64,000 nt of DNA, taken from contig HF992498.1 in assembly GCA_000433455.1 (NCBI GenBank), positions 49,922 to 113,921 of the forward strand, written 5' to 3'. The stretch is from Mycoplasma sp. CAG:877. GTDB lineage: Bacteria; Bacillota_I; Bacilli_A; RF39; UBA660. Positions 15,315-60,943 of the stretch are shown in pieces. Each line of letters opens with the position of its first letter. The stretch's first letter is position 1. The notes under the pieces are model-generated. The model was not told the DNA's origin. It was given only the letters and a program-made list of their open reading frames with translations, and made no database searches. The translations under genes and the position numbers were made by a program.

Positions 15315-15391
15315 GGCGCCGTTGGTGAAGTGGTTAACACGCTAGTTTGTGGCACTAGTACGCAAGGGTTCGATTCCCTTACGACGCCCCA
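15315..15391 (+). tRNA. tRNA-His (anticodon GTG) with encoded G-1 and 3' CCA
   Basis: Folded by hand. The anticodon stem is CTAGT/ACTAG with loop TTGTGGC (anticodon GTG). The T arm is AAGGG-TTCGATT-CCCTT. The acceptor is GCGCCGT/ACGACGC (one C-A mismatch), with an extra 5' G opposite C73 and then CCA. Confidence 0.85.
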
Positions 15392-22004: not shown

Positions 22005-22160
22005 CCTTAATATAAAAATAGTTCTGATATATTTCTTTGTTGTAATCTTGATTTTACTTTTTAAAATATATCTAACGAATAACTTAAATCCGTAGTAGAA
22101 TCCGCCGAATATTTCGATAAACTACTAACCTCGTCATCCTCATAGGATCTGGCGCTCAAA
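22005..22160 (-). ncRNA. glmS ribozyme (GlcN6P-dependent self-cleaving leader)
   Basis: The minus strand reads ..A/GCGCCAGATCC..GATGACGAGGTTAGTAGTTTATCGAAATATTCGGCGGATTCTACTACGG.. This reproduces the conserved AGCGCCAGA, GACGAGG, UAUCGAA and UUCGGCGGAU core blocks. It lies between the promoter and the glmS RBS. Confidence 0.85.
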
Positions 22161-22196
22161 TGAAAAATACAACCTTTCTAATTTCATTCTAATAAT

Positions 22197-47441: not shown

Positions 47442-48564
47442 GTGCACTTTAAATTGATTCAACGATATAAAGATCCTAAGCCTACTAAAAATGGTAGAGC
47501 TTGATATTTTAAGTTTAGCTATAAAGATATATTTGGTGCTACTAAACAATATAGATCTAAAAGATATTTAACTAAAAAGGAAGCATCTGATGCAGAAAAA
47601 ATGTTTTAGTTACTTCTACTGATAAAGTTGAAGATAACAATATGACATTTAAGGATTTATATGATGAATTTAGAATGCATAACGATGAAATAATGAAAGA
47701 TACTACTAAGTACGGTTATGATAATAAAGAAGAATTTATAGAATGCTTCTATCCTGTTAAAGTAAAAGATTTTAATATTATGCAATTTGAACAATGGAAA
47801 CGAGAAATAAATAAACTTAATATATCTCTTAGATATAAAAATGATATTTATAAATTTCTTAAATCTATTTTAAATTTTGGAGTTAAATGGCATAACTTAA
47901 ATTTTCAGGCAGTATATAATAAGATGACGAAGTTTCAAGATCCTAACGAACGTAGAAAAGAAATGACTTATTATACTTATGATGAATTTAAAAAGTTTAT
48001 TTCTAATGAAGAAGACTTAAGATGGAAATGTGTATTTGAAATACTATATTATTGTGGACTACGTAAAGGAAAATTAAAAGGCCTTACTTGGAAAGATATT
48101 TATTTTGATAAAAAAGTATTATCAGTTAATAAACAAATAACCCAGCGAAATAACCGTGTTAAATTCGAATTTTCGGATACTAAGACAAGAGATAGTAGAA
48201 GAATAGTTCCTATCACTAAAGTCTTGTTAAATGACCTTAAAATGCTTTATGAACAGAATAAAAAAGAGTATTACGGATTTAATGATGATTTCTTTGTTGT
48301 ATTTGATGCTAAACCTATAGCTGATTCTAATATATATCTAAGAAGAACTAAATTAGCAACACTTGCAGGTTTAAAAGTTATTAGGATTCATGACTTTAGA
48401 CATTCGTGTGCATCACTGCTTATTAACAATGGCGCTAATGTTACATTAGTTGCCAAATATTTAGGTCATACAAAAATCGAGGAAACCCTAAATACATATT
48501 CACATATGTTTAGTACCGCCTCGACTCTGTGGTTTCTGTTATAGATAGTTTAGAAGACGACTAA
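47442..48564 (+). pseudogene. Tyrosine recombinase / phage-type integrase, disrupted
   Basis: The N-terminal arm-type region ..RYKDPKPTKNGRA*YFKFSYKDIFG.. has an in-frame TGA at 47502-47504 where Trp is expected. A frameshift in the A6 run at 47596-47601 separates it from the MTFKDLYDEF.. frame. The catalytic region (RIHDFRHSCASLL..GHTKIEETLNTYSH) is intact. A probable third frameshift near 48520 follows (the alternative frame reads RLDSVVSVIDSLEDD*). Confidence 0.7.
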
Positions 48565-48565
48565 G

Positions 48566-49777
48566 CTATTTTTTATATCTAAATTTATGATCTTTTGCCC
48601 ATTTTTCAATTGATGTTTTAGTTTTTTCAAATTCATCATTGTTGATAGTAACTCCTATTAATTGCATTATATATATTCTTATAGAATGACTTAATTTCCA
48701 ATTTGCATAAATATTTTCAAGTTGATAAAATACATTTTTTTCTTCATTCATATTTAAATGTGAAAGATAATGTCTATGTTCTTTTGACTTAAATAAGAAT
48801 ATAGGTGTATTATGTTGATCTCCAGCTAATTTTAAATCTCTTTTAACTAATAATGTACTAATTACTGAATTTTGCAAAAAACAGAACTCAAGTATTTGCC
48901 ATAGATCCATTTTTACGCCTGGATTCATTGTTTTAAATAAACCTTCTAATAACTGAACTAACATGGAATTTTTAATTTCTACATAGAAATCGCCATTCAT
49001 ATTAGTCATTAATAAGTCAAATATTATTTTTGTCTGCTTTCTAAGCTTTTTAAATGCTTTTATTTGTTTTTTTGAAATACTTTGTGGATCAATATAAGAT
49101 AAAATTCCATTTGTGGATGATCTATATATACCTTTTCTTTGAATATATTTTGGTGCATTCTCTATATATAAAACAATTTCTTTCTCATTAAAAATACTTA
49201 TTTGATCAACTCTTGGTATATCTCCTAAATATAAAAAAGTCATTTCAAGAATTGTGTATATGATGTTAGAAAGTTTGTCATATTTATATTTTTTTGAACT
49301 TGATACTGTATAATCTATAATTACCTTATCATTATCAAATAGTCTTTTTATACTTATCTCAATATCTTTATCATATTTAAAATCTACATTTGAAATATAC
49401 AAAGAAAACTTTTTAGGCATAGATGTTCTAAAAACCAATTTATTTGTTTCCACATTTCTTTCATCTGTTATCACATTTTCTAATATATATTCAATTGGAG
49501 CAGTATATATTTTTAATTCATCTTTCAATTTAAAACCAAATATACAATTAAAGCAGCTGTAATACATTCCATTTTCATCGCATAAATATACAGCTTTATT
49601 TGTATTCAATTTTTCTGGAGTCATTACTAATTCTGCACAATTAAGATTAAAAGCACTCTTGAGCACATCAAACGATATAATAAGATTAATAATTCTAGAT
49701 TCTACATCAAATGTTCCTGTCACATCAAAAAAGTTTTCTTTATCAACACTTATTCTTGTAATTTTTCTACTATTCAT
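48566..49777 (-). CDS. ApeA-like single-gene defence candidate (N-terminal ApeA-type domain plus C-terminal HEPN-like Rx4H)
   Basis: 403 aa from ATG 49777 (behind AGAGGGA). The C-terminal helical region carries EHRHYLSH (R-x4-H). No other motif was recognised. Confidence 0.4.
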   Translation of the reverse strand: MNSRKITRISVDKENFFDVTGTFDVESRIINLIISFDVLKSAFNLNCAELVMTPEKLNTNKAVYLCDENGMYYSCFNCIFGFKLKDELKIYTAPIEYILENVITDERNVETNKLVFRTSMPKKFSLYISNVDFKYDKDIEISIKRLFDNDKVIIDYTVSSSKKYKYDKLSNIIYTILEMTFLYLGDIPRVDQISIFNEKEIVLYIENAPKYIQRKGIYRSSTNGILSYIDPQSISKKQIKAFKKLRKQTKIIFDLLMTNMNGDFYVEIKNSMLVQLLEGLFKTMNPGVKMDLWQILEFCFLQNSVISTLLVKRDLKLAGDQHNTPIFLFKSKEHRHYLSHLNMNEEKNVFYQLENIYANWKLSHSIRIYIMQLIGVTINNDEFEKTKTSIEKWAKDHKFRYKK

Positions 49778-49814
49778 ATTTATCCCTCTTTCAATAATTA
49801 CATCACCATTTGTT

Positions 49815-49848
49815 TTAAAAAAGAAAAAGCCTCCAAAATGGAGGCGCA
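49815..49848 (-). terminator. Rho-independent terminator between the antitoxin gene and the ApeA-like gene
   Basis: On the minus strand, GCCTCC-atttt-GGAGGC is followed by TTTTTCTTTTTT. Confidence 0.6.
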
Positions 49849-49910
49849 CTCATCAGAGTGAAATACCACATATAAATGTGCATTAATTAAATGTCTTTAA
49901 TCAATATATA

Positions 49911-50870
49911 TTATTCATAAACTTTATTGAAATATTCTTTTATAAAATCTATGCTAATAGTACCACTATTTACAGAATTTATCCACGGATCTTCATCATG
50001 AGTTAAGTCAATTAAGGAACCAGCTTCTATTTGGCCATAGCTTGATACAACCAATTCAATTATTTTCTTTAGTCCATCACAAACTTCATAATCTGTTTTA
50101 GGTGTAGCAATTGGATTACGACCTTTATATTGCTGATAAACTTCTTCTACTACTGGTCCATATTGCCATGCAGATATGCTATTTGAAAACGCTGGTTTTC
50201 CATATATTCTTAAAGCCATTCCTTGAATGTAATATAATAATTTTTGAAGTTTTAAAGGAGTAATATACTCAGCAGCTCCACAATTATCTTCTATTCCATA
50301 TTTCTTACTAACATTATCAATCTGAGTATTATATTCAATAATTAATTGATTAGTAACATAATTAATTGATTCAGTTTCAAAATTCAAATTTATATAATCA
50401 TTAATATTAAAATCTGCAATTTTATGGTGTTTTAACCTTTTTAATGCACTCACTTTTTTTAGAAAGCTACTAAAATCATTATCAGATAAATTAGCTTGAT
50501 TTTTAATCAATAAATTATACATGATATCAGGATCTTCGCTAAGTCTTATAATTGAATCAACTGACTCAGTTTGTATAGAACCATTTTCAAATCTATGTAT
50601 TGTAATTTCACCAACACCAATTGATAAAGCAAACTCTTTTTGATTCATATCATATTTTTTTCTTATATTTTTAATTTCTGAAGAAGTTAATAAATTCATT
50701 TGCTTTTTATATATGTCATATAATCTGGCATCATTTTCAATTTCTATGTTTCTATCAAACACTTCTTCTCCTGTTGTAGGGTCAATCATGTAGTATTCAT
50801 CAAATTCTATAATTTTCCCCTTAACATTAGCTTCAATTCTCCTTGTTTTAACATTTTCTCTACTATCCAT
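49911..50870 (-). CDS. Antitoxin: MqsA-like (zinc-less) N-domain + XRE HTH fused to Panacea (DUF4065/SocA-like) domain
   Basis: The HTH is IKNIRKKYDMNQKEFALSIGVGEITIHRFENGSIQ. The Panacea core is LKLQKLLYYIQGMALRIYGKPAFSNSISAWQYGPVVEEVY. The RBS is AGGAGGGA. Confidence 0.65.
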   Translation of the reverse strand: MDSRENVKTRRIEANVKGKIIEFDEYYMIDPTTGEEVFDRNIEIENDARLYDIYKKQMNLLTSSEIKNIRKKYDMNQKEFALSIGVGEITIHRFENGSIQTESVDSIIRLSEDPDIMYNLLIKNQANLSDNDFSSFLKKVSALKRLKHHKIADFNINDYINLNFETESINYVTNQLIIEYNTQIDNVSKKYGIEDNCGAAEYITPLKLQKLLYYIQGMALRIYGKPAFSNSISAWQYGPVVEEVYQQYKGRNPIATPKTDYEVCDGLKKIIELVVSSYGQIEAGSLIDLTHDEDPWINSVNSGTISIDFIKEYFNKVYE

Positions 50871-50881
50871 ATTTATCCCTC

Positions 50882-51190
50882 CTAATTTTCATCCTCATGA
50901 CAAGATAATATCTTAATTTGATTATTCTTATACTTCAATTTAGTATAAAATATAACATTAGGTATTATCTCTTTCTTAAAGATGAATAATTCTTCCCCTG
51001 GGCAATCTCGATCTGGTTCTGGTCCTTTGTATAAATCCTCTGCTTCTAAACTGGCAATATAATCTTCAATGTCATATTGTGATAATCCATATTTACGCTT
51101 TGAATTTCTATTTTTTACTGTTGGAACCATGTCATAATTTCCAGATTTTATGGATGATTTTGTTTTTACTAATATTTCTGACACTTCCAA
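50882..51190 (-). CDS. MqsR-like toxin candidate
   Basis: 102 aa, upstream of the antitoxin as in mqsRA. The ..EDLYKGPEPD..ELFIFKKEI..VIFYTKLKYKNNQIKILSCHED layout resembles the MqsR C-terminal beta-sheet pattern. TTG start behind GGTGAT. Confidence 0.5.
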   Translation of the reverse strand: MEVSEILVKTKSSIKSGNYDMVPTVKNRNSKRKYGLSQYDIEDYIASLEAEDLYKGPEPDRDCPGEELFIFKKEIIPNVIFYTKLKYKNNQIKILSCHEDEN

Positions 51191-51207
51191 TTCATATCAC
51201 CAATTAT

Positions 51208-51246
51208 AGTATACACCATTTTTAAAAAATTATCAATTGATAATTT
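51208..51246 (-). promoter_or_regulatory. Promoter overlapped by a perfect 20-bp palindrome (likely antitoxin operator)
   Basis: AAATTATCAATTGATAATTT at 51227-51246 is its own reverse complement. On the minus strand, TTGATA (51231-51236), a 17-nt spacer and TATACT (51208-51213) form the promoter. Confidence 0.55.
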
Positions 51247-51310
51247 GAAAATATATAATATATTTAAATATATGTTTTGTCAAGTCCTTTCAATACTATT
51301 TTTAACTATA

Positions 51311-51499
51311 TTACTTTACTATTGACATTTCCTCATAATCTTCTTCGTTACCAATTCTTTTTAAATAATCTTTACCTCCATCAATTGCTACTGTTCCACA
51401 TGAACATCTTTTATAATCATTAGTGCTTTTCGATTCTATAATATTTCCACATTTTTTACATTTAATTTTATTACTAATTATTTCTTCTTTCTTTTCCAT
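51311..51499 (-). CDS. Small zinc-ribbon protein (CxxC..CxC)
   Basis: 62 aa, KCKKCGNIIES..YKRCSCGTVAIDGGKDYLKRIG. The RBS is GGAGGAGA. Confidence 0.55.
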   Translation of the reverse strand: MEKKEEIISNKIKCKKCGNIIESKSTNDYKRCSCGTVAIDGGKDYLKRIGNEEDYEEMSIVK

Positions 51500-51697
51500 A
51501 AGTCATCTCCTCCATAATAATTATACCATGATCTTGTAACGATTATATCTTACCGTTTGCGGAATAATGTTATTTTCTCATTCATACGAATCATTTATAT
51601 TTTATCCGTATCATTGTTAAAATTAAAAATCCATTGAAGATTTTTGCCGTTTACGTCACTTTTCTTCAATGAACTATTTTTAAAATCTAATTTTTTT

Positions 51698-51719
51698 GTA
51701 CCTAAATTGTACCTAAAAT
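51698..51719 (+). repeat. Direct-repeat motif GTACCTAAATT-GTACCTAAAAT (copy 1 of 3)
   Basis: The same double motif recurs at 51922-51944 and 60726-60745. Confidence 0.7.
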
Positions 51720-51921
51720 TATTTTAGCAATACTGATACCTCGCAAGTCCTTATAAAATGGGCACAAAAAATGAGAACACGGTTAAATGCTCTCTTCAGG
51801 GGGCAAAAATATATCACACACAAAATAAATTATTACTAGTTAAAAGCCTTATATTATAAGCATTTATAAATTATAACTAATTACAAAATTTTAAATATAA
51901 TTATCAAATTTTAAAATTTGA

Positions 51922-51944
51922 GTACCTAAATGGGTACCTAAAAT
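51922..51944 (+). repeat. Direct-repeat motif GTACCTAAATGG-GTACCTAAAAT (copy 2 of 3)
   Basis: Lies ~50 bp upstream of the TnpV pseudogene start. Confidence 0.7.
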
Positions 51945-51991: not shown

Positions 51992-52354
51992 ATGAATATA
52001 ACTTATACAAAATGTGGTGATTATTTATTACCAAATTTAATACTTGCTGAAAAAGAAAATAAACTTTTAAATAAATATGGATTATTAAGATTATAATACT
52101 TAAAAAGTAATAAGAAAGCATTATATCAAGAATTACTTATGAAAAACAAATTGAATGAGCATCTTTTTTCAGTCAGTATAATAGCTGAAGATAGAATTAA
52201 TAACATAGTTAATAACTTAATAGAATTAGATTCATCAATTACGTAAAAATTGAAATCTGAAAATCAATTACTATGGGTTCAAAAAATGAATAATTGTAAA
52301 AATACTGCTGAAGAAATTGTTTTAAAGAAAATTATTTATGGAGATGAAATATGA
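51992..52354 (+). pseudogene. TnpV-family gene with two in-frame TAA codons
   Basis: MNITYTKCGDYLLPNLILAEKENKLLNKYGLLRL*YLKSNKKALYQELLMKNKLNEHL..SSIT*KLKSENQLLWVQKMNNCKNTAEEIVLKKIIYGDEI matches the TnpV pattern. The stops are at 52094-52096 and 52244-52246. Confidence 0.65.
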
Positions 52355-52662
52355 TTAAAGGTAAAGAAGATATTACAGATAAAGAATTTGAAGAAATATT
52401 ATTACCATTCTATAACAACTATAATGAATATCTTATTAAATTTGTAATACCTGACGCAATAGCATTTTATTTAGCAAATGGATATAGTAGAAATTGTTTA
52501 TCAGATTGTCCATTAATCAATCATATTAATTCAGCACTTGATATATTTAATGTTAGATGTAATGTTGATGAATTAATGTCTGAAATAGACTTAGTTTTAA
52601 AAATAAAATATAATCTTAAAATTGCAAAAAATAATCCACTAAAATTAATAGAAGTTCTATAA
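52351..52662 (+). CDS. Hypothetical protein
   Basis: 103-aa ORF with an ATGA overlap with the TnpV frame. No motif recognised. Confidence 0.4.
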   Translation: MIKGKEDITDKEFEEILLPFYNNYNEYLIKFVIPDAIAFYLANGYSRNCLSDCPLINHINSALDIFNVRCNVDELMSEIDLVLKIKYNLKIAKNNPLKLIEVL

Positions 52663-52665
52663 AGA

Positions 52666-52696
52666 AAAGCACTATCTAAATTTAGATAGTGCTTTT
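52666..52696. terminator. Strong hairpin terminator
   Basis: AAAGCACTATCTAAA/TTTAGATAGTGCTTT is a perfect palindrome followed by T. Confidence 0.6.
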
Positions 52697-52720
52697 AACT
52701 TATATTTGGGATTAATATCA

Positions 52721-52786
52721 TTGCCTAGCCAGCACTGAATTTGCACTCCCGTACGAAATTCAAATGTGGGAAAATCCCAAACCCTT
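52721..52786. repeat. Inverted repeat IR-A (partner of 59825..59889)
   Basis: The reverse complement reads aagggtttgggattttcccacatttgaatttcgtacgggagtgcaaattcagtgctggctaggcaa. IR-B reads aagggtttaggcattcccacatacgaatttcgtacaggagtacaaattcattgctttctagacaa. By hand count, roughly 54 of 66 aligned positions are identical. Confidence 0.8.
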
Positions 52787-55128
52787 TATGTATTGTTTAT
52801 TTGATTAATTCTGTCATAGTCAGTTGATAATAATTCAAATTGACCATTATAATCTTTTTTAATAAATTTTATTATAGCTTTACAACTTTCAATATAGTGA
52901 TTGTCTTCAAAATGTTCACCATCATGTACTTCATCTATTGTAGCATGAGAACCTTTATTAACTATTTTCATTAGAGATTGTAATGCAACTTTTGAAATAT
53001 CATAATCAGAAATATTATTGGATATATTATCAATTATTTTATTTAAATAATATTTAGAAGACGTAGATTCATTATCGTTAATTGGATATTCAAATCTAGA
53101 AATTGTTTCTAATACATATCTACAGTAATTATGAATATACAGTTTTTGTTTTTTATCAATTGTATTCGTCTTGTATATTTTAAATATTTCTTTCAATTTT
53201 TCTAGATATATTGAGTCAAGATTTTCGTTATCAATAATTATTTTAGTTTTACCATTAACTTCAGTTAAATTAAGATATGTTGCTGTTTTTTTATAATCAA
53301 ACTTAAATAAATTCATGAACAAAGTATTATGAGAAGATATTATAAACTGAGAATTAGGATTTTCTTCTATTATATTATTTATATAATTATATATTCCATA
53401 TAAATTTGGATAATCAACTGATGATATAGGATCATCAATCAAAATTATATTTTTTTCATTTTCCGAATAATATAATTCTAACTCTGCAATAAATAAAGAA
53501 AATGCAACAATACTTTTCTCGCCATTACTCAATAACTTATCTACGCAAAAACTAACTTTCTCTCCATTTAAACATAAATCGAATTCTTCATCTACTCTAT
53601 AATTACTAATGTTAAAATCATCTAAAATGTCATTCATTTTTTTCAACAAAATATTTTTTTCTCTAAGTTCTTTTTCATATTCTTCTTTCAAAGGTTTTAA
53701 TTCTTCAATAATTTGTTTTATTTTATTTTCAGAGTCAATTAATTGTTTTATATCATCTTTCATTGACTCATAAGTTAAATAAATAGCAACATTTTGAAAA
53801 TAGTCATCATTTCTTCGAGTTTTATCACTTGTTGAACTATCAACTTTTTTATTGATATCATTAATATTTTTTGTTAAATCACTATATAATTTTTGAATAT
53901 CATTCAATTCTGTAACATCAACATTATCTATAGATTTACTACTATCAACGAATAAGTAATTATCTAAACTTTTTTGTTTTAGTATATTTACTATTTTATC
54001 TAAATATAAATTCAGCTTATTTTCTAAAGAGTTAATCTGATTATATAAATTACTTTTGAAAATACTATCTAAATATTGTGCATTAGTTTTTACTAACTCA
54101 AAAGAATGTTTTGAATTGTTTTTATAATTACTAAATCTATTTATTTCGCTAGTTAAATATGTTTTCATCTTATTAATTCTACTATCAACATAATCTTTAT
54201 ACATATTAACTAATTCATTTCCTTTTATATCAGACCCACAAAATGGACAGCTATCATTAGTAATATGGCTAACACCATCTAATTTCCATTTTCTGAGTTC
54301 TTCACTTAAACTGTCTAAAATTTCACGAGCTGATTTTGTCTTTGTCTCATCTTCGTTAAAAGTCAATGATTTATTAACATTAATAATATCTTGTTCTATA
54401 GAAGGAAGATCTAAGAAATCAATGTTTAAATGTATTTTGTTACTATCATTTAAATCTTTAAGACTTTGTATATATTTAATATGTTCTAACCTTTTTTTAT
54501 TTAAATCATCTATAACTTCTTTTTCTTGTGGATTTATTAATTTTAATTTTTCTATTGCAAACATTGAATAATTTTTATTATTATCTTTAGTAGAAGTATC
54601 TTTTTTTAGGTTTTCAATATTATCCTTTATTTGTTTGTTTATTTTTTCTACAAGTTCTTCTTTGCGCTTTTGTTCTATTTTACCAATTTTTATTTTATCT
54701 AAATATTTAGTTTTTGACTGTAATTCTACACCATAATTTAGATTTTTTTCTTGAAATTTGTTATTTTTAAAGTCTTCTTGATATGTAATTTTTAAGTCAA
54801 TATATTCTTGATTAAAAACTGGTATCTTAATTGGATTTATAATGCTATTCCCTGTAAAAATATTAGATGTATTATTATCAAAATTAATTTTTACATTTAA
54901 ATCTTTTATAGCTCTTTTTGTCTTTAATTGTAATAAATCATCAATGTATTCTTTTCCCTCTATATATTTATTATTAGTATAAAAAAGTTTTGAAATAGAA
55001 CTTTTTCCACTACCATTTTTACCATAAATGAATATACAATTTGTCTTTTTATCACTTGGAATTTTTATTTCTTGAGAATCAATAAATTTTGTAAATGAAC
55101 TTTCAATATTAATACTTGTTATCTTCAT
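52786..55128 (-). CDS. AAA_13-type ABC/SMC-like ATPase, RloC/PrrC-like
   Basis: Walker A YGKNGSGKSS, a long coiled-coil insert with zinc-hook-like CPFCGSDI, ABC signature LSNGEKSIVAFSLF, and Walker B IILIDDPISSVD. The C-terminal region has CRYVLE and VNKGSH. Confidence 0.6.
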   Translation of the reverse strand: MKITSINIESSFTKFIDSQEIKIPSDKKTNCIFIYGKNGSGKSSISKLFYTNNKYIEGKEYIDDLLQLKTKRAIKDLNVKINFDNNTSNIFTGNSIINPIKIPVFNQEYIDLKITYQEDFKNNKFQEKNLNYGVELQSKTKYLDKIKIGKIEQKRKEELVEKINKQIKDNIENLKKDTSTKDNNKNYSMFAIEKLKLINPQEKEVIDDLNKKRLEHIKYIQSLKDLNDSNKIHLNIDFLDLPSIEQDIINVNKSLTFNEDETKTKSAREILDSLSEELRKWKLDGVSHITNDSCPFCGSDIKGNELVNMYKDYVDSRINKMKTYLTSEINRFSNYKNNSKHSFELVKTNAQYLDSIFKSNLYNQINSLENKLNLYLDKIVNILKQKSLDNYLFVDSSKSIDNVDVTELNDIQKLYSDLTKNINDINKKVDSSTSDKTRRNDDYFQNVAIYLTYESMKDDIKQLIDSENKIKQIIEELKPLKEEYEKELREKNILLKKMNDILDDFNISNYRVDEEFDLCLNGEKVSFCVDKLLSNGEKSIVAFSLFIAELELYYSENEKNIILIDDPISSVDYPNLYGIYNYINNIIEENPNSQFIISSHNTLFMNLFKFDYKKTATYLNLTEVNGKTKIIIDNENLDSIYLEKLKEIFKIYKTNTIDKKQKLYIHNYCRYVLETISRFEYPINDNESTSSKYYLNKIIDNISNNISDYDISKVALQSLMKIVNKGSHATIDEVHDGEHFEDNHYIESCKAIIKFIKKDYNGQFELLSTDYDRINQINNT

Positions 55129-55208
55129 ATTTTACCTCTTAAATCTTAAACTTTTAATTTATAGGCATATTTCAGCCATTTTTATATATACTATTAAAGA
55201 CATAGTTA

Positions 55209-55237
55209 TTGACAAATACTAAATTATTTGCTATATT
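55209..55237 (+). promoter_or_regulatory. Consensus-like sigmaA promoter of the intergenic sRNA candidate
   Basis: TTGACA (55209-55214), a 17-nt spacer, then TATATT (55232-55237). Confidence 0.6.
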
Positions 55238-55243
55238 AATTAT

Positions 55244-55320
55244 GTCAAAAGCAATCAATTTGCTTGGGGTTCGTGGTATCGCGGACGGTAAGAACTGGTT
55301 TAACCAGTTCTTATTTTTTT
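55244..55320 (+). ncRNA. ~77-nt structured sRNA candidate, opposite in orientation to the flanking defence genes
   Basis: Three hairpins: AAGCAA-tcaat-TTGCTT; GTTCGTG-gtat-CGCGGAC (with G-U pairs); and the terminator AAGAACTGG-tttaa-CCAGTTCTT + ATTTTTTT. No RBS. Confidence 0.5.
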
Positions 55321-55322
55321 GC

Positions 55323-56168
55323 TTAAGGAAATATTTTTATTCCCTTATTTTTATAATTTGGATATCCATCAATCTTATCTTCAAATGTTAAAAATGCTTT
55401 ATCTTTTGAATTTCTTTTTACATATTTATGAATTGGATAAGAAAATAAATCTGTTATCTCAAGTCCAACATAAGTAGAACTATATTCTTCATTCCATTTA
55501 GGATTAAAGTATACTCCATCAATTTTAGTTTGCAATTCTTTTGAACTTATTTTTTTAGTACCTGTTTTATTAATAACTTTACTAATGTGTTCTAATAATT
55601 CTTTGTCTTCCTCTTTTCCTCTAGCCTCAAGCATTATTACTCCCTTTTTATTATTATCAGTTGCATAAATATATCTTTCCAACAAAAAATCAAATGCCAC
55701 ATTATAAACATTATGTGTATATCCTTTTTTTAAATATTCATACAAATTAATACTAATTGAAATTATTTTACATTTTATATTCTTCATTGAATTAGTCAAA
55801 TCAACCATAAACTCGTCATAATTGATAACACTATCATTAAAGCAATTATCATGTTTTCTTATATCTCTTGAATGAAAGCATACAGCTCTATCTTGTTTCA
55901 ATTTAGTATCATAAAACATTCCATTTTTCCAATAATTATTTTTTAATAAATTTATTATTTTTTTCGAGTCCATATATTCTTTCTTTGTAAAAATACACCC
56001 AGTAATGGTAAAGTACTTATCATCTTCTGACACCTCTTTATCATTAGATATTTGCTTTAATACATAAGTTAAATTACTACTGCTACCATTTTCATCAATA
56101 CACATAACATAATCTATATCTTTTTTCATTAATAAAATTTTAGTAGGCTTTTCACTCCATTTTGACAT
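55323..56168 (-). CDS. DUF3800-family protein
   Basis: The N-terminal ..YVMCIDENGSS.. matches the DUF3800 DE(S/N)G motif. 281 aa; RBS GAGGTG. It starts 25 nt after the R-M gene stop. Confidence 0.55.
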   Translation of the reverse strand: MSKWSEKPTKILLMKKDIDYVMCIDENGSSSNLTYVLKQISNDKEVSEDDKYFTITGCIFTKKEYMDSKKIINLLKNNYWKNGMFYDTKLKQDRAVCFHSRDIRKHDNCFNDSVINYDEFMVDLTNSMKNIKCKIISISINLYEYLKKGYTHNVYNVAFDFLLERYIYATDNNKKGVIMLEARGKEEDKELLEHISKVINKTGTKKISSKELQTKIDGVYFNPKWNEEYSSTYVGLEITDLFSYPIHKYVKRNSKDKAFLTFEDKIDGYPNYKNKGIKIFP

Positions 56169-56193
56169 ATCTTACACCTCATTTCAATTACTA

Positions 56194-58977
56194 TTAACTC
56201 TTTTCAGTTAATAATTGATACATTTTCATCAGTTCAGCTACACATTCTGATTCAGTCATAATTTTCCAATTAAATCCATACGCTTCCATTACAGCAACAT
56301 CGTTTGCTTGATGAGCTTTTCTTAATTCCACGGGCATGGTTAATTCATCATATAGATCAGCAAGGGAACTATTTGGATATTTTGCTCTAGCATCTAATAT
56401 CATTTGTGCTGTTTGTTCAATTTTATCTCTTTGTTGAGATGTTGGATTAGGTAATGGAAAATTATTATAGACAATATCTTTTGAATATCTATAGTCGCTT
56501 TTTAGTCTACCACAAACAGTTCTTGTCCAAGACATATGTACATTTGATGTTAAAATTCCAAAATCATATAAATCAGCATTAGGAATAATCAATGTACCCA
56601 TTACTGGAATAGTTTTATCGTCCAAGAATCCGATTGGTATATATCTTCTTCTTTCTGATGAAACACAAGGTATTATTAGATAACTTTTTGGATTAATTTG
56701 TTCTCTAAATAATGTTGGAGTGTTTGCTAACTTTAATGATTCCTCAGTATTTGCCTTTATTCTATCTTCTCTACATTTATTTACTCTTTCTAATACTAAA
56801 GGCATACTTCTCAACTCACTAGGTTCACATCCAACTAACCATAAACAATATCTTTCTTTATTATTAATAAATTCTTGAGCCCCGACCATCCTCTTTATCC
56901 ATTTTTTTGATTGTGGACATTTTGATATAAAATCAGTATATTCATTCTTTTCAATTTTTAAATTATTGTAATCACAAGGCTTATTAGGAGCAATCATCTT
57001 TTTTCTTAAATCAAATGGCTTATTTCTGCTTTCAATAAAAACATTAGGTGCAGATACTAAATAAGGATTAATATTATTAGTTTTTAATACTTTACCGTTA
57101 TCAAATATAATTTTTTTATCTACAAGATTTTTACAACTAAAACCAATTATTACACAATGAACATGTGCTTTTAGGCTTGCTTCACTATCCCATCTAAATG
57201 TACGATGAGCAAAATTTATAGTAATTCCCATTTCTATAATAGGTTTCCATATAATTCCAGTTTGCTCTCCTTGAGTTATCGAATTAGTGGAAACAAACGC
57301 ACATTTAATTTCAGTTTCTAAAATATATTTAGACGCTAAATAAAACCAGCATGTAACATAATCTAGTGTCCTATATTTAATTTTAGAATTATTTTCAAAA
57401 ACATAATCCATATCCAACTTTTGCTCTTTATCTGAATATTTAGAACCAACAAAAGGTGGATTACCCATTATATAACTACATTTATTATTTGAAATAACAT
57501 CGTTCCAATTTATTCTTAAAGCATTTTCCTCAACTATATTATCATAAGTTTCTAATGGTAAAAAATCACTTATATTTGTAAAACTAGATATTATCTTTTT
57601 AGTTTCAGTCCACATTTGAGCTTCTGCAATCCAAAGTGCAGTTTTAGCAACTTTAACAGCAAAATCATTTACCTCTATTCCATAAAATTGTTGAATTGAA
57701 ACGTTTATTGTATCAGCTATATCCAACATCATCATACCTTTAGACATAGCTGATAACATTTCATTTTCCAATCTTCTTAAAGATAAGTATGTTTCTGTTA
57801 AAAAGTTACCTGAACCACAAGCCGGGTCTAAAAAATTAAGTGATGCTATATAATTTTGAAATTCTATTAATTTCTCATTTCTTGTTTTCTCATTTTTATA
57901 TGCTAATGCATCATCTAATTTTTCTCTTAATTCATTTAAAAACAATGGGTCAATTACTTTATGAATATTTTCAATTGAAGTATAATGCATACCTCCAGAT
58001 CTTCTAGTTTCTGGATTTAATGTTGATTCAAATACTGCACCAAATATAGTTGGAGATATTTCAGACCAATCAAAATCATCAGATGCTTTAGCTAACAAAG
58101 TATCTCTTATCTCTTCAGTAAATAAAGGTATTTCTATATTTTCATTAGAAAACAATCCACCATTAACATAAGGAAATTGGTTTAAATCATCATCTAGATA
58201 AGGATCTCTATCTTCTAATTTTGTATCTAAAATTTTAAATAGTTCAATTAAATTTTTCCTCATTAAAACTAAATTATCATATTTACTTAAATAATCATGA
58301 AAAACATTTTTTCTTCCAAATAAGCCTGCATCTTCAGCATATAAACAAAATACTAATCTAACGCATAATTCATTTAAATCTTTTTGTGACTGCTCATTAG
58401 TTATATCTTTATATTGCTTAGAAAAAGCATCATAAAGTTTTCCAACTAATTCACCTGCTTTAAATGATAATTCTTCCTCTTTTTTTAAATGCTCGCTTTT
58501 TTCATCTACTAAAAATGATAAACGATAATATTCTTTTGGTAAATTTTTTAATAGTATTTCTTCTGGTTCACTGTTAGGATTATTCATATCATAAACAAGA
58601 AATGATTTAAAATTACATGTAATAACCCATTTTGGATGCTTAGACACAGGAAGTTCAGCAATATATTTTTTTGCTTGTTGAAAAGGATTAAGTAAACTAC
58701 CATCTGATTGTTTTATCGGCTTTCTTAAATCTTTTTCGATACTCTTTTGTTCAATTAATACTTTTGTACTTGGAATGTATCCATCTATAAAACCCGTTGT
58801 TTTATCAATATGAACTTGATCTTCAAATTCAATAAATTCACTAATTTTTTCTACGCCAAACACATCAGTTAATAATGTTGTCCAAAATATTTGTGATTGC
58901 CCCTTTTCATATCCTTTATCTTTCCAAAACTCTGCAAATTCTTTTGCTCTATTCTTTTTTTCTAAATCAGTCATCAT
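56194..58977 (-). CDS. MmeI-family type IIL restriction-modification enzyme (nuclease + N6-adenine methyltransferase + TRD in one chain)
   Basis: 927 aa. N-terminal PD-(D/E)XK (FIDGYIP..VLIEQKS), MTase motif I FLDPACGSGNFL and motif IV GNPPFVG. MmeI-like blocks run throughout: CAFVSTNSITQGEQ, INFAHRTFRW, VHCVIIGF, NINPYL, RRYIPIGF, YRYSKDIVYNNFP, SLADLYD..MP.ELRKAHQ. Confidence 0.85.
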   Translation of the reverse strand: MMTDLEKKNRAKEFAEFWKDKGYEKGQSQIFWTTLLTDVFGVEKISEFIEFEDQVHIDKTTGFIDGYIPSTKVLIEQKSIEKDLRKPIKQSDGSLLNPFQQAKKYIAELPVSKHPKWVITCNFKSFLVYDMNNPNSEPEEILLKNLPKEYYRLSFLVDEKSEHLKKEEELSFKAGELVGKLYDAFSKQYKDITNEQSQKDLNELCVRLVFCLYAEDAGLFGRKNVFHDYLSKYDNLVLMRKNLIELFKILDTKLEDRDPYLDDDLNQFPYVNGGLFSNENIEIPLFTEEIRDTLLAKASDDFDWSEISPTIFGAVFESTLNPETRRSGGMHYTSIENIHKVIDPLFLNELREKLDDALAYKNEKTRNEKLIEFQNYIASLNFLDPACGSGNFLTETYLSLRRLENEMLSAMSKGMMMLDIADTINVSIQQFYGIEVNDFAVKVAKTALWIAEAQMWTETKKIISSFTNISDFLPLETYDNIVEENALRINWNDVISNNKCSYIMGNPPFVGSKYSDKEQKLDMDYVFENNSKIKYRTLDYVTCWFYLASKYILETEIKCAFVSTNSITQGEQTGIIWKPIIEMGITINFAHRTFRWDSEASLKAHVHCVIIGFSCKNLVDKKIIFDNGKVLKTNNINPYLVSAPNVFIESRNKPFDLRKKMIAPNKPCDYNNLKIEKNEYTDFISKCPQSKKWIKRMVGAQEFINNKERYCLWLVGCEPSELRSMPLVLERVNKCREDRIKANTEESLKLANTPTLFREQINPKSYLIIPCVSSERRRYIPIGFLDDKTIPVMGTLIIPNADLYDFGILTSNVHMSWTRTVCGRLKSDYRYSKDIVYNNFPLPNPTSQQRDKIEQTAQMILDARAKYPNSSLADLYDELTMPVELRKAHQANDVAVMEAYGFNWKIMTESECVAELMKMYQLLTEKS

Positions 58978-59042
58978 TAAATACCTCCAATTCTTACTTA
59001 ATTAGTTATAATTTAATTTTTGTTTAAATTGCAATTAACTTC

Positions 59043-59699
59043 TCATAAAATTTTATATTTAAATATTATTATCATTATCAATAAAATTATTGCTATAATT
59101 AATTTTCCAACATTTTCTATAAAGTTATAATAAATTATCAAAATTCTTGATAATAGTATTTTTTTGTTGTCTAAATCATTAATTCTTATTTTTAATAAAT
59201 CAATGATATCCACCTTTTCACCAGTAAAATCATATTTCATTTTTTTTATGACTCTCGAAGAAATTATTAATAATTTCATGGTTTCTAGGGTACTATTTTT
59301 TTCTTCTTTTGTTTTTTTACCATTTTTATTATTTTTGTATAAATAATGTTGATATGTAGCAATTGCTTTTATTGTTGATTTTGAAGAATATAGAATTGCA
59401 TCATGGCTAATTAGTTTTATAATTTCTACATCTTCTGTTTTTCCCTCTAATCCAATATTTTTTTTGTATATCTCTATACATTTATTAAAATCATATAGCA
59501 ATAAACTACTCCAAAACTTTAAAATTCTCTCTTGTACATTTATTCCTTCTCTTTTAAAATAATCGGACGTAATACTTTTATTATTATTCTTTGATGTTAA
59601 AAAAGCTGTGATAAAAGCGACAAAAATTGTACATGCAAAACCAATAATAGTTAATAAATTTTCACCCGATAATGTTGTTTTTAAAGATTCAACCATCAT
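59043..59699 (-). CDS. Hypothetical 2-TM protein (first gene of the cassette)
   Basis: 218 aa from ATGATG 59699 behind GGAGGTG. TM segments lie near both ends (LLTIIGFACTIFVAFITAFL; LIIAIILLIMIIIF) around a helical soluble middle. Confidence 0.45.
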   Translation of the reverse strand: MMVESLKTTLSGENLLTIIGFACTIFVAFITAFLTSKNNNKSITSDYFKREGINVQERILKFWSSLLLYDFNKCIEIYKKNIGLEGKTEDVEIIKLISHDAILYSSKSTIKAIATYQHYLYKNNKNGKKTKEEKNSTLETMKLLIISSRVIKKMKYDFTGEKVDIIDLLKIRINDLDNKKILLSRILIIYYNFIENVGKLIIAIILLIMIIIFKYKIL

Positions 59700-59824
59700 A
59701 CACCTCCAATTAAGACTAAATTGATCATGATGAATTCCCTGGTATTTTTCTAGTAAATTTGCAGTAAAATTCATATCATTTAATAATTATTATGAAAATA
59801 ATTTTTTATTTTAAAATTTCAATC

Positions 59825-59889
59825 AAGGGTTTAGGCATTCCCACATACGAATTTCGTACAGGAGTACAAATTCATTGCTTTCTAGACAA
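59825..59889. repeat. Inverted repeat IR-B (partner of 52721..52786)
   Basis: See IR-A. Both copies keep an internal hairpin: GAATTT-13 nt-AAATTC. Confidence 0.8.
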
Positions 59890-59981
59890 ATATTATATTT
59901 CCAATGACAGCAATGACGCCTTTATTACACCATACCCATATATCTCTATTTCTTGTCATATTGTCATTACTAACTAAAAAA

Positions 59982-60593
59982 TCATTCTTCTTCAGTAAGT
60001 AATTTTTTTAAATCATCAAGAGATTGTTTTTGTTTTTTTATTTCTTTTTCATTATCTTTAACATAATTTTTAATTACTTTGATAACTCTATTTTTGTCCT
60101 TTTTATTTAATTCAGAAATAAAATTTAACTCTTCTAAATCACAGTTATCTAATAATTCTTTAATAACCATTTTCATATATAGTTCATCTTGCATTTGATT
60201 AACTATATCATCTAGTACTAAAATCGGAGCATTTTCTGGCTTAATAACCATACTACTATAAGAATTATTTACTGTTGAATCTATTTCTTCCTTACTATAC
60301 TCACATAGTTCCATTAACATCTCTAAGGATAGATTTAATACTGAACTTAACTTTTTTAAAGATAATACATTAGGCTTCTTTCTTTCACCTTTTTCAATTT
60401 TAGCAATCGTATTATTATCTATACCAGTTATTCTTGATAATTCCCTTTATACATTAGGTTTCTTTCTTTCGCCTTTTTCAATTTTAGCAATTGTATTATT
60501 GTCTATACCAGTTATTCTTGATAATTCTCTTTGGGATATATTAATTTTCTCTCTAGCTTCTTTTACTACACTAGCTAAAGTTTTATCATTCAT
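59982..60593 (-). pseudogene. XRE-family HTH regulator interrupted by TAA inside an 84-bp in-frame tandem duplication
   Basis: A single frame runs from ATG 60593 to the stop at 59982-59984, except for TAA at 60447-60449. The upstream part is MNDKTLASVVKEARENINISQRELSRITGIDNNTIAKIEKGERKKPNV*. The HTH segment then repeats and continues into the 112-aa track ORF (59982..60320). Confidence 0.65.
60367..60534. repeat. 84-bp tandem duplication (60367-60450 / 60451-60534)
   Basis: The units differ at 60375/60459, 60387/60471, 60408/60492, 60417/60501 and 60444/60528. All five are third-codon synonymous changes. 60449/60533 creates TAA vs CAA. Confidence 0.85.
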
Positions 60594-60625
60594 TAAATTA
60601 CACCTCTTTTTGACTTTCTAATACC

Positions 60626-60725: not shown

Positions 60726-60745
60726 GTACCTATTTGGGTACCTAA
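60726..60745 (+). repeat. Direct-repeat motif GTACCTATTTGG-GTACCTAA (copy 3 of 3)
   Basis: Lies upstream of the XRE promoter, near the right edge of the island. Confidence 0.65.
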
Positions 60746-60943
60746 CACATATACAAACAAGCTTAAAGCCCTTATAAACAAAGTATCCCGCCATTTCTGA
60801 CGGGATTTCAGGGGGTTCGGTTGAATATACTCTTACATACAAACGTAAGAGATATCGGCGTGACATGCATCACGCACCTTAATCATAAATGAATTTTACT
60901 AAATTGTCAATCTATACCAGCAAAATAATTTTACTTTACACAT

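Follow-up and report, generated by a model that had tools for sequence, protein, structure and literature searches.

Defence genes turn over fast in islands, satellites and prophages, and the sequence features that make a "slot" in them are rarely defined. P4-like, PICI and PICMI-type satellites, like the island described below, combine a backbone of integrase, replication and regulator genes with variable, defence-rich cargo; both integrate site-specifically and occur in tandem. To our knowledge, a conserved non-coding border in the form of an inverted pair has not been described for such satellite hotspots. In integrons, each cassette carries one attC site in direct orientation, and the IntI integrase, attI and Pc are required. 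Tycheposons are grouped with the satellites as small integrative elements with defence-cargo hotspots like the island described here (10.1101/2020.12.28.424599). The hotspots of satellites and tycheposons are delimited by conserved protein genes, unlike the non-coding border reported below.

Two further systems come close in architecture. On Acinetobacter plasmids, pdif modules, which encode no recombinase themselves, lie between Xer sites in inverse orientation, and recombinase-mediated cassette exchange has been proposed for them (PMC6449649, PMC13141974). As in the present locus, a short, inversely oriented site bounds recombinase-less accessory modules, with one site serving many modules; unlike the present locus, pdif sites are 28-bp XerC/XerD sites resembling chromosomal dif, and the modules are chained on plasmids (PMC6449649, PMC13141974). 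The unit studied here measures ~80 nt, contains two hairpins and a variable spacer, marks one slot per chromosomal island, and is linked to Xer only by analogy. Promoter-early stem-loop (PeSL) motifs of T4-type phages occur many per genome, in direct orientation, in the hyperplastic regions of lytic phages (PMC2839356, PMC4122927). Both PeSL and the unit are short composite non-coding motifs that join a promoter-like box to a stem-loop at the edges of variable modules, and both provide shared sequence where modules are gained, lost and replaced (PMC2839356, PMC4122927). In the unit, a TAnnnT box and hairpins lie at such edges and replacement occurs at the unit itself, promoter and terminator being assigned by consensus scan only. 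Unlike PeSL, the unit is present once or twice per element, as an inverted pair, around the one slot that an integrative island or prophage has; PeSL motifs bear no sequence similarity to it, and its invariant 20-mer has no PeSL counterpart.

In the 64-kb window (the whole stretch of DNA analysed), the two copies lie within a ~9-kb tyrosine-integrase island, inserted downstream of recG with the att core TTCAGGGGG at both ends. The canonical island reads recG, then integrase, helicase, Xis-like and XRE genes, a unit, the cargo, a second unit in the opposite sense, c0 and TnpV, the two arms pointing towards the cargo. The features in the window are as follows.

51795-51803, + strand: left att core TTCAGGGGG, a direct repeat with a module similarity boundary nearby
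51922-51941, + strand: GTACCTAAATGGGTACCTAA motif at the left island end, partner of 60726-60745, probable integrase arm-type site
51992-52354, + strand: TnpV-family gene, broken by stop codons (gene calls of 34 + 71 aa with PF14198 in locus L058)
52351-52662, + strand: c0, a 103-aa backbone protein preceding unit A in this family
52665-52696, no strand: perfect 32-nt palindrome between c0 and unit A, predicted bidirectional terminator (terminator scan; contigs break here at L059, L060 and L063)
52708-52785, + strand: unit A, the border on the c0/TnpV side (repeat search, core count, family HMM and alignment), comprising a GGGATTA box, -10-like TAATAT (52713-52718), the 20-mer (52722-52742), hairpin 1 (52737-52761), hairpin 2 TGGGAAAATCCCA (52767-52779) and the end AAACCC/T (52779-52785)
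52786-55128, - strand: cargo gene 4, AAA_13 / PDC-S06 ATPase (Pfam, PADLOC), whose stop abuts unit A
55323-56168, - strand: cargo gene 3, DUF3800 protein (Pfam PF12686, 2.6e-5)
56194-58977, - strand: cargo gene 2, MmeI-family type IIG restriction-modification enzyme (Pfam MmeI_N/hel/Mtase/TRD/C; PADLOC REase_MTase_IIG)
59043-59774, - strand: cargo gene 1, AbiN-like membrane protein (PADLOC AbiN, 7e-19)
59826-59902, - strand: unit B, the border on the XRE side (same evidence as unit A), comprising -10 TATAAT (59897-59892), the 20-mer (59888-59868), hairpin 1 (59873-59849), hairpin 2 TGGGAATGCCTA (59843-59832) and the end AAACCC/T (59832-59826)
59903-59970, - strand: spacer between XRE and unit B, with -35-like GCGTCA (59919-59914) and 16 nt to TATAAT
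59982-60608, - strand: XRE-family HTH gene, disrupted in the window
60726-60745, + strand: GTACCTATTTGGGTACCTAA motif at the right island end, partner of 51922-51941, probable integrase arm-type site
60807-60815, + strand: right att core TTCAGGGGG, direct repeat of the left core

Within the window, the 9-mer TTCAGGGGG occurs at positions 51795 and 60807 only, and it also flanks complete islands at eight other loci. The TnpV-c0 module is shared with unrelated contexts (L059 and L063), where the TnpV-family gene is intact at 120 aa, only from 51789 onward. Direct att repeats, an integrase at one end and a module recurring in different contexts were thus all found, as in tyrosine-integrase islands; the copy in the window has lost its integrase, helicase and Xis-like genes. 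Neither a family match nor a fold match was obtained for c0. The palindrome at 52665-52696 is likely the end point of the c0 transcript and the cargo transcript alike.

The first-pass annotation had proposed that imperfect inverted repeats of ~66 bp bracket the defence cassette. An inverted-repeat search of 52000-60600 recovered arms of 67 nt at 52706-52772 and 59838-59904 (79% complementary), by far the longest pair, the runner-up being 35 nt at 71%. When two 121-nt regions around the repeats were aligned with MAFFT, identical columns clustered in the central ~80, and the family alignment refined the limits to 52708-52785 (+) for unit A and 59902-59826 (-) for unit B, which are ~80% identical. 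Even with three mismatches allowed, the window contains just two copies of the 25-nt hairpin core GAATTTGYACTCCYGTACGAAATTC, against an expectation of 0.00 (100 shuffles), confirming the pair; a family HMM derived from 57 foreign copies matches both units (E = 1e-22 and 1e-19). The positions first assigned also held: the stop codon of the last cassette gene (780 aa; 52786-52788, minus strand) begins 1 nt past unit A, and the end of unit B lies ~130 nt before the public-gene-call start of the first gene (217 aa), where ~125 bp had been given. The first ATG of the AbiN-like ORF (59774) is 51 nt beyond that end. The internal hairpin that had been noted is present in both copies, with a stem of 10-11 bp (GAATTTGTAC/GTACGAAATTC) rather than GAATTT/AAATTC alone.

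Every unit follows one layout: a -10-like box, an invariant 20-mer, hairpin 1, hairpin 2, whose loop varies, and an abrupt end at AAACCC/T. The three constant letters of the TAnnnT box are found in 88/94 (T), 85/94 (A) and 80/94 (T) copies, with positions 3 and 5 free. On the XRE side, a -35-like GYGTCA at 16-nt spacing accompanies both unit B variants; outside this class, -35 enrichment is marginal (2.99 vs 2.64 of 6). Hairpin 1 is 96% paired and includes four pairs with changes on both sides, a number equalled in 0-1 of 500 shuffles, while hairpin 2 maintains its stem and varies in loop sequence and length. RNAalifold returned no consensus structure, and single-sequence folds were no better than shuffles (z -1.5 to +0.3). 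Consensus matches in AT-rich DNA suggest a promoter and leader role for the unit. Neither promoter, terminator nor simple homology accounts for the near-invariance of the 20-mer.

The ~80-nt unit is a previously uncurated conserved element. A genome scan located the exact hairpin core in 57 loci, with one or two copies per locus, from uncultured gut bacteria (mostly different species-representative genomes) and at least three backbone types; altogether, 94 distinct copies were collected from gut "Bacilli"/Mycoplasma sp. CAG:877-like MAGs and some viral contigs. By the exact core pattern only, each species representative yields one or two matches, including two complete chromosomes of ~1.3-1.5 Mb. 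No match was found in cultured phages or plasmids. Upstream of the 94 copies there are always c0, TnpV, XRE or integrase modules. Nineteen islands contain an inverted pair, spaced 1.7-9.3 kb; single units also lie beside recombinase modules of prophage-like contigs, and at 17 loci a lone unit accompanies codirectional cargo, with no partner within 4.5-7.4 kb. Two loci (L048 and L066) carry direct rather than inverted pairs, and one (L030) a chimeric unit.

This distribution bears on the suggestion that the repeats are the terminal inverted repeats of a non-autonomous transposon, of the MITE or mobile-insertion-cassette type, that carried in the defence genes. Imperfect inverted repeats do bracket genes here and, as first noted, there is neither a transposase between them nor a target-site duplication flanking them. 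The units nevertheless prove to be conserved backbone, at the same place in every island and never dispersed; lone copies sit beside recombinase modules, none of the 94 is transposase-associated, and at least 15 cargos share exactly one junction. The units lie ~0.9 kb inward of the island ends set by the att cores; what moves is the ~9-kb island in its entirety, which has att repeats of its own. With repeats that are not the outermost ends, no duplication and no cognate transposase, we rejected this class, and we consider transposon ends very improbable. REP/BIME elements, which number tens to hundreds per genome, were likewise dismissed, since only two copies occur in 64 kb, both in one island; the generic REP element at hundreds of sites that had been envisaged does not agree with one or two exact-core matches per species representative.

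The units hold a fixed orientation inside the islands, and the cargo between them is replaced wholesale in islands that are otherwise near-identical. The identical borders of the 19 islands enclose at least 15 distinct cargo sets, made up mostly of defence genes (for example MmeI, Dcm+Eco47II, OLD/AriA-like, PDC-S46 and PtuA-like); the bracketed cassette is exchanged as a block, as the first-pass annotation had anticipated. In eight island pairs, both arms are >90% identical and cargo similarity is <10%. At ten XRE-side loci, backbone and unit are near-identical and six different cargos diverge exactly past AAACCC. Unit halves travel with either flank. The first cargo gene begins 14-108 nt beyond unit B, several loci having the RBS within ~25 nt of the unit and no space for another promoter, and the final cargo stop falls 2-23 nt short of unit A in 12/19 islands. 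At many single-unit loci, an extended -10 promoter belonging to the cargo lies past the unit, which makes the unit dispensable there as a promoter. In a neighbouring island type, cargo is exchanged in the absence of any unit; the units are thus not required for cargo turnover in general.

All cargo genes lie on one strand, codirectional with XRE in 19/19 islands. This speaks against the proposal that recombination between the units inverts the segment in a phase-variable manner. Inverted repeats ~7 kb apart would flip the intervening DNA on recombining; nonetheless, none of the 19 islands, drawn from independent assemblies, has its cargo reversed. No serine invertase or other invertase gene is present; there is only the island integrase, itself missing from the window copy. 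Units A and B moreover remain distinct in sequence type and hence seldom recombine with one another. Inversion of the 7-kb segment, which had also been put forward, is hence barely credible.

We favour, with a probability of roughly 55%, a reading in which the units are module-boundary elements: paired inner borders of a cargo slot that act as leader and trailer for the cargo operon and as shared homology for swapping. Each unit would be the innermost conserved piece of one backbone arm (the XRE arm or the TnpV-c0 arm), and the two copies are inverted because both arms are transcribed towards the cargo. Recombination between islands would swap cargo with one crossover per arm or unit, the units supplying the innermost shared homology, which other element types also have in common; intramolecular recombination between the inverted copies could not delete the cargo. 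Unit B, on the XRE side, may serve as the promoter-proximal leader of the operon, and unit A, on the c0 side and read in reverse, as its 3' trailer before the bidirectional terminator. Together, these roles would allow any gene set placed between the units to be expressed. Mosaic patterns point to homologous recombination as the swap route; a dedicated recombinase acting on the unit is the alternative.

One form of that alternative treats hairpin 1 as a lox/FRT/dif-like core, with inverted arms of 8-10 bp around the spacer ACTCCCGY, so that cargo would be replaced by recombinase-mediated cassette exchange. As in Xer-dif modules, inversely oriented sites flank modules without a recombinase of their own, and many different modules share one slot. 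The arms are conserved with compensatory changes, the asymmetric spacer is kept in most copies, and the chimeric unit would fit; in some islands, the spacers of units A and B differ (ATAGCC vs ACTCCCGT), which, as with heterospecific lox sites, would block inversion and permit exchange. Set beside the 11-6-11 dif architecture, hairpin 1 can be read as arms of 8-10 bp with a spacer of 4 to 8 nt. Against a core site, the spacer or loop measures 4 nt plus a bulge, 6 or 8 nt with constant arms, which is unusual when one recombinase reads the site. On the XRE side, the 3' half of the unit remains with the backbone whichever of six cargos follows, placing the breakpoints at the unit end and not in the hairpin. 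In addition, the unit occurs in three settings, with a tyrosine integrase, with a large serine recombinase or with no recombinase close by, and does not resemble the att core of the island, TTCAGGGGG. We therefore regard a core site in hairpin 1 as rather unlikely.

The geometry that suits the module-boundary reading also allows a function at the RNA level. On the cargo transcript, unit B near the 5' end could pair with the reverse complement of unit A at the 3' end, forming a duplex that is processed or stabilized like the RNase III stems flanking rRNA precursors; a length of roughly 45-65 bp is estimated from the shared 20-mer and hairpin-1 arms. Such complementary UTRs had been suggested at the outset, and their geometry is both real and general: in all 19 islands the cargo is codirectional and runs up to unit A without a separate terminator, a bidirectional one lying just past the unit, and the near-invariant 20-mer and arms render any A/B pair complementary. 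Most non-Watson-Crick cells of hairpin 1 would read as G.U on the opposite strand (21 vs 4, equivalent to ~13 vs 4 independent events), as would 9/9 such cells from c0-side units; this strand is the one that a cargo operon transcript would represent. The 17 lone units with codirectional cargo and the direct pairs do not fit, nor does the fact that loop, linker and hairpin 2 of units A and B from the same island do not co-vary. Given single-unit loci and A/B loops that differ in some islands, pairing cannot be the unit's primary function, and we think a dedicated duplex improbable; 5'/3' pairing may occur as a side effect.

Equally doubtful for the unit is a role as an autonomous regulatory RNA or protein-binding module with no connection to recombination, cargo turnover being incidental. 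Candidates are a short RNA, a five-codon mini-ORF leader (SD GGGAG-N8-NTG TCT AGC MAG CAM TGA) and a put/nut-like antitermination leader. The 20-mer is invariant, no indels occur between the GGGAG box and hairpin 1, and two hairpins follow, 4-5 nt apart. A mini-ORF start (TTG, GTG or ATG) is found in 93/94 copies, with the in-frame TGA fixed at the foot of hairpin 1, and units are far better conserved than neighbouring proteins (~90% vs ~60% identity for c0, read by eye). Nevertheless, any of three nucleotides suffices by chance for the start codon, and the K/Q and Q/H replacements are unconstrained. The GGGAG box is absent from the unit B variant and from units beside an RT gene, GGGAGUA:UACUCCC pairing is retained in just 80% without convincing covariation, and the unit has no terminator-like end. 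Against the covariance models of Rfam 15, neither unit gave a match at the gathering threshold or anything meaningful at E < 10.

A bolder reading, tentative and on balance doubtful, holds that the ~80-nt unit is a dedicated, portable "cargo port", a structured element bound by a host or island factor that would license expression of any operon behind it and would catalyse or target precise cassette exchange at AAACCC/T. If true, islands and prophages would share a Firmicute/Mollicute-like counterpart to the integron or pdif platforms that rests on two sites in inverted orientation. The islands resemble integrons in placing promoterless cargo behind a fixed expression site, in a structured imperfect-palindrome border and in rapid cargo turnover. 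They differ from integrons in having inverted borders that are part of the platform and not of the cassette, and in exchanging entire multi-gene operons. An integron cassette array itself was rejected: the inverted units bracket multi-gene operons, and the integrase integrates the whole island at TTCAGGGGG. If the unit turns out to work as a port for recombination or expression, it could find use as a natural platform for cassette exchange.

One conserved non-coding element thus marks the slot at nucleotide resolution across the 57 scanned loci. The 20-mer and hairpin offer a simple search handle for harvesting cargo, including many unannotated candidate defence genes, and the islands provide a testable model for the exchange of immunity operons by reduced-genome gut Bacilli. 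The unit, with its invariant 20-mer, also adds an uncurated conserved element. Next to it, the spacer between XRE and unit B is near-identical in at least 10 islands and contains four TGACA/TGTCA half-sites (59966-59953, direct; 59917-59902, inverted), which are probable operator sites. In the window, a tandem duplication of 84 bp (60365-60532) interrupts the adjoining XRE gene and introduces an in-frame stop.

The inverted repeats that the first-pass annotation had described as bracketing a defence cassette were borne out by an inverted-repeat search, by computed alignment and by counts in shuffled sequence. The arms at 52706-52772 and 59838-59904 (67 nt, 79% complementary) far exceed the length of every other inverted pair in the region, and the two copies, referred to here as units A and B, aligned with high identity over about 80 nt and were unrelated to either side of this stretch. 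The 64-kb window contains precisely two occurrences of their hairpin core, GAATTTGYACTCCYGTACGAAATTC, with 3 mismatches permitted, against an expectation of 0 (100 shuffles). Between the arms are four genes, each of them minus-strand:

52708-52785, plus strand: unit A, on the side of the c0 and TnpV genes
cargo gene 4 (last, next to unit A), minus strand: AAA_13/PDC-S06 ATPase
cargo gene 3, minus strand: DUF3800 protein
cargo gene 2, minus strand: MmeI-family type IIG restriction-modification enzyme
cargo gene 1, minus strand: AbiN-like protein
59902-59826, minus strand: unit B, on the side of the XRE gene

As noted earlier, the stop codon of the last gene sits at the repeat edge, starting one base past unit A, no transposase is found among the genes between the arms, and no target-site duplication lies outside them. 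The missing duplication speaks against the proposal that the repeats are terminal inverted repeats of a mobile cassette, a reading that is contradicted, and we consider it very improbable that the units are transposon ends.

One genome per species was scanned for the exact core, which turned up at 57 loci; almost all of them belong to MAGs of uncultured gut "Bacilli", "Tenericutes" or Clostridium sp. CAG, and the window itself matches Mycoplasma sp. CAG:877 by a protein name. Adding 8 IMG/VR viral contigs and 30 metagenome loci, the latter retrieved via the neighbouring XRE protein, brought the collection to 94 distinct unit sequences. Aligned copies have about 80 nt in common and diverge abruptly at both edges. 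In uncultured gut Bacilli, the unit is found both in islands and on prophage-like contigs, and the presence of only one or two copies at each scanned locus argues against a dispersed REP- or MITE-like repeat, as had been envisaged. For the unit, Rfam returned noise only, whether at the gathering threshold over the whole window or at E < 10 for units A and B; the consensus unit had no blastn match among 50,697 phage and 72,556 plasmid records from cultured collections, and literature searches on TnpV with defence, or on satellite hotspots with inverted repeats, turned up nothing describing this unit. Functionally, its nearest counterparts are the PeSL motifs of T4-type phages, promoter/stem-loop elements through which modules are shuffled (PMC2839356, PMC4122927), and the pdif modules of Acinetobacter plasmids (PMC6449649, PMC13141974); integron cassettes and the defence hotspots found in satellites and small islands are looser likenesses. 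By sequence and defining features, however, the unit appears to belong to none of these. We would rate it a new sequence family of module-boundary, cargo-slot element with an inverted-pair architecture. A tRNA-fragment origin was rejected on inspection by eye.

ORF clustering round every copy placed a backbone gene reading towards the unit on its 5' side in all cases, and variable cargo on its 3' side. Either c0 (about 100 aa; 52351-52662 in the window), with a TnpV-family gene ahead of it, or an XRE-family HTH gene occupies the 5' position; on viral contigs, this position is taken by a large serine recombinase with TnpV or by a tyrosine integrase. The canonical island order is recG / integrase(-), DnaB/primase-like helicase(-), 85-aa Xis-like gene(-), XRE(+), unit(+), cargo(+), unit(-), c0(-), TnpV(-). 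The c0 protein has 581 homologs and no Pfam, PHROG, NCBIfam or PADLOC match, and its AlphaFold model (pLDDT 72) gave no PDB Foldseek match with E below 3.9.

The TnpV-c0 module recurs in identical form at two loci of unrelated genomic context (L059 and L063), with similarity starting at window position 51789. The 9-mer TTCAGGGGG, the att core, is present in the window only at 51795 and 60807, against 0.09 occurrences expected, and borders complete islands at eight further loci; just within both island ends there is a GTACCTAnnTGGGTACCTAA motif. The window units are internal to this larger mobile element, and an attP or dif-like origin of the unit found no support, the unit and the island att core having no similarity. 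At 60785-60815, the right att core adjoins a terminator-like hairpin (ATCCCGTCAGAAATGGCGGGAT, minus strand) downstream of a 520-aa GNAT-domain gene; the island thus integrates at the terminator of the recG-side operon and probably supplies it. Tandem islands were seen in two loci (L093, 15561-18534; L098, 17846-19639), with a further integrase directly after TnpV and, in L093, a third att core as well.

The window copy of the island is decayed: it is without the integrase, helicase and Xis-like genes, and its TnpV gene is broken. Its XRE gene carries an 84-bp tandem duplication (60365-60532) that introduces an in-frame stop, whereas in a near-identical island (L058) the segment is single and XRE is intact (175 aa). 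Were XRE a repressor of the cargo promoter, the window copy would be derepressed.

Inverted pairs were found in 19 islands including the window, with a forward unit after XRE and an inverted unit 1.7-9.3 kb downstream. At least 15 different gene sets lie between these paired units, most of them recognisable defence genes: MmeI-type enzymes, Dcm with an Eco47II-type endonuclease, OLD/AriA/Gabija-like ATPases, PDC-S46, PtuA-like ATPases and FtsK-like proteins. In eight island pairs, both 600-nt arms are more than 90% identical while less than 10% of the cargo is shared, and ten XRE-side loci with near-identical backbone and unit lead into six different cargos that diverge exactly past AAACCC; different cargo between the same repeats, which the first-pass annotation had suggested looking for, was thereby found. 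Two adjacent units marking an empty site were also searched for and none was found, the smallest cargo being 1.7 kb. One c0 variant, looked up in 10 contexts, carried identical cargo each time, and the swaps are therefore seen between island lineages rather than within one. Either flank was accompanied by both unit halves in a segment-association test, the pattern that recombination between related islands would produce if the units were the innermost shared homology. These comparisons show that the units are conserved and border a cargo slot within an integrative island, and that the cargo between them is replaced with its orientation fixed. Indeed, cargo is codirectional with XRE in 19/19 islands, with zero minus-strand cargo genes in the canonical order; this contradicts an invertible switch with the units as its ends, to which we give next to no credence, and the 7-kb inversion once proposed left no sign. 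Two islands (L095, 4707-13993; L098, 10512-17421) have 9-10 biosynthetic-looking genes in place of defence cargo, with proteins judged by eye to be PLP decarboxylase-like, ATP-grasp, radical SAM, arginase-like and aminotransferase.

Breakpoints also fall at the 5' edge of the unit: the left arms of loci L075 and L076 are 99.7% identical and their unit variants differ. In three loci, a gene for a retron-type reverse transcriptase (PADLOC RT_VI 2e-51, PF00078) lies between unit A and c0, outside the inverted pair and about 600 nt from the unit (L081, 9710-11532; L083, 14017-15833; L091, 15900-17722); L078 and L041 have an unrelated 402-aa gene in its place. The 5' edge may be a second insertion point.

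The inverted pair is not the only arrangement. Among loci examined over at most 20 kb each, 17 have only one unit, with cargo codirectional to it and no second copy within 4.5-7.4 kb, and two have direct unit pairs; the unit should therefore be able to work alone, its inverted pairing resulting from the convergence of two backbone arms on the slot. Within islands, units A and B keep distinct sequence types, as in six islands where the unit B loop reads ATAGCC and the unit A loop ACTCCCGT, which indicates that the two copies neither homogenise nor co-vary. By analogy with pdif modules (PMC6449649, PMC13141974), the unit could be a lox/dif-like site for site-specific recombination; this is unlikely, however, as the spacer varies in length, the 3' half of the unit stays with the backbone, and the recombinase contexts are of three different kinds.

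Six parts can be recognised in the 94 copies. First comes a box, in most cases GGGAG, and then a hexamer in which position 1 is T in 88/94, position 2 is A in 85/94 and position 6 is T in 80/94, positions 3 and 5 being free; this is the signature of a putative -10 element, with the sequence TATAAT in the XRE-side class and TAATAT in window unit A. XRE-side units have a -35-like GYGTCA placed 16 nt ahead of the -10, and the stretch from the XRE stop codon to the unit contains four TGACA/TGTCA half-sites; both are retained even in divergent islands. Beyond the XRE-side class, -35 enrichment is marginal. Inspection found no consistent -10 for an outward-facing promoter in the unit. Next come a near-invariant 20-mer with zero indels, TGTCTAGCMAGCAMTGAATTT, and hairpin 1, GAATTTGTAC-TCCC-GTAC(G)AAATTC, which is 96% paired. 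Four of its pairs are changed on both sides, a number reached by only 0-1/500 shuffles, and the double changes include G:C to A:U (viral group), A:U to C:G (L094) and U:A to C:G (L076); the strong conservation of the unit keeps the evidence for covariation modest. A linker of 4-5 nt leads to hairpin 2, TGGG(A)-loop-(T)CCCA, whose stem is kept while its loop varies in sequence and length, and to the terminus AAACCC|T, past which all similarity stops.

An autonomous regulatory RNA or mini-ORF leader would account for the invariant 20-mer. We nevertheless hold this to be quite improbable, as nothing supports it positively: RNAalifold gave no consensus fold for the unit, and the GGGAGUA:UACUCCC pairing is weak. 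This pairing, tried as a pseudoknot or SD-sequestering element, was rejected, being only 80% paired with the middle pair in 48/94 copies and no clear covariation. A five-codon mini-ORF is compatible with the alignment and not demonstrable; NTG makes its start "conservation" expected, and the SD is gone in some classes. Single-sequence folds of the units were no better than shuffles.

Several cargos have their RBS and start codon within about 25-30 nt past the unit, leaving no room for another promoter. In the window, a TTGAAA-N16-TATTTT site downstream of unit B (59822-59795) is a candidate alternative promoter. At the other border, the last cargo stop codon lies 2-23 nt ahead of unit A in 12/19 islands, and a perfect 32-nt palindromic bidirectional terminator (52665-52696) stands just beyond unit A. 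Three independent Logan contigs (L059, L060, L063) end exactly 32 nt past the c0 stop, inside this palindrome, probably through a de Bruijn-graph break there and not for a biological reason.

Comparative sequence analysis of metagenome assemblies is the basis of all our functional statements. In the reading that we favour, at a probability of roughly 55%, the XRE-side unit would lie inside the cargo operon's promoter-proximal leader, which XRE may control, and the c0-side unit, read in reverse, would form the operon's 3' trailer; cargo would be swapped by recombination between islands, with one crossover per side, and the inverted arrangement of the units would avoid cargo deletion. Complementary 5' and 3' UTRs forming a duplex, as proposed earlier, agree with this geometry, and hairpin 1 stem mismatches (52737-52761, 59873-59849) are skewed, with 21 cells A.C/C.A on the unit strand (G.U on the opposite strand) vs only 4 cells G.U on the unit strand; in c0-side units, 9/9 such cells are of the opposite-strand G.U kind. 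As a functional explanation, however, an RNA duplex cannot account for the single-unit loci, and we hold it to be quite improbable that this is what the units are for.

Directly left of the att core, the window holds a second, unit-less island (47642-51789), with genes for a 300-aa tyrosine integrase, a protein of 427 aa that weakly matches HEPN_Apea, a SocA/Panacea-HTH antitoxin-like protein with an MqsR-like toxin, and a DUF7695 protein. Relatives with the same c0 carry other cargo in the integrase-TnpV interval, namely AbiE, HigB/PemK, Fic, RloB+AAA_21 or type I RM. Elsewhere in the window, the only gathering-level Rfam matches are two:

22017-22167, minus strand: glmS ribozyme (70 bits)
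15316-15388, plus strand: tRNA gene
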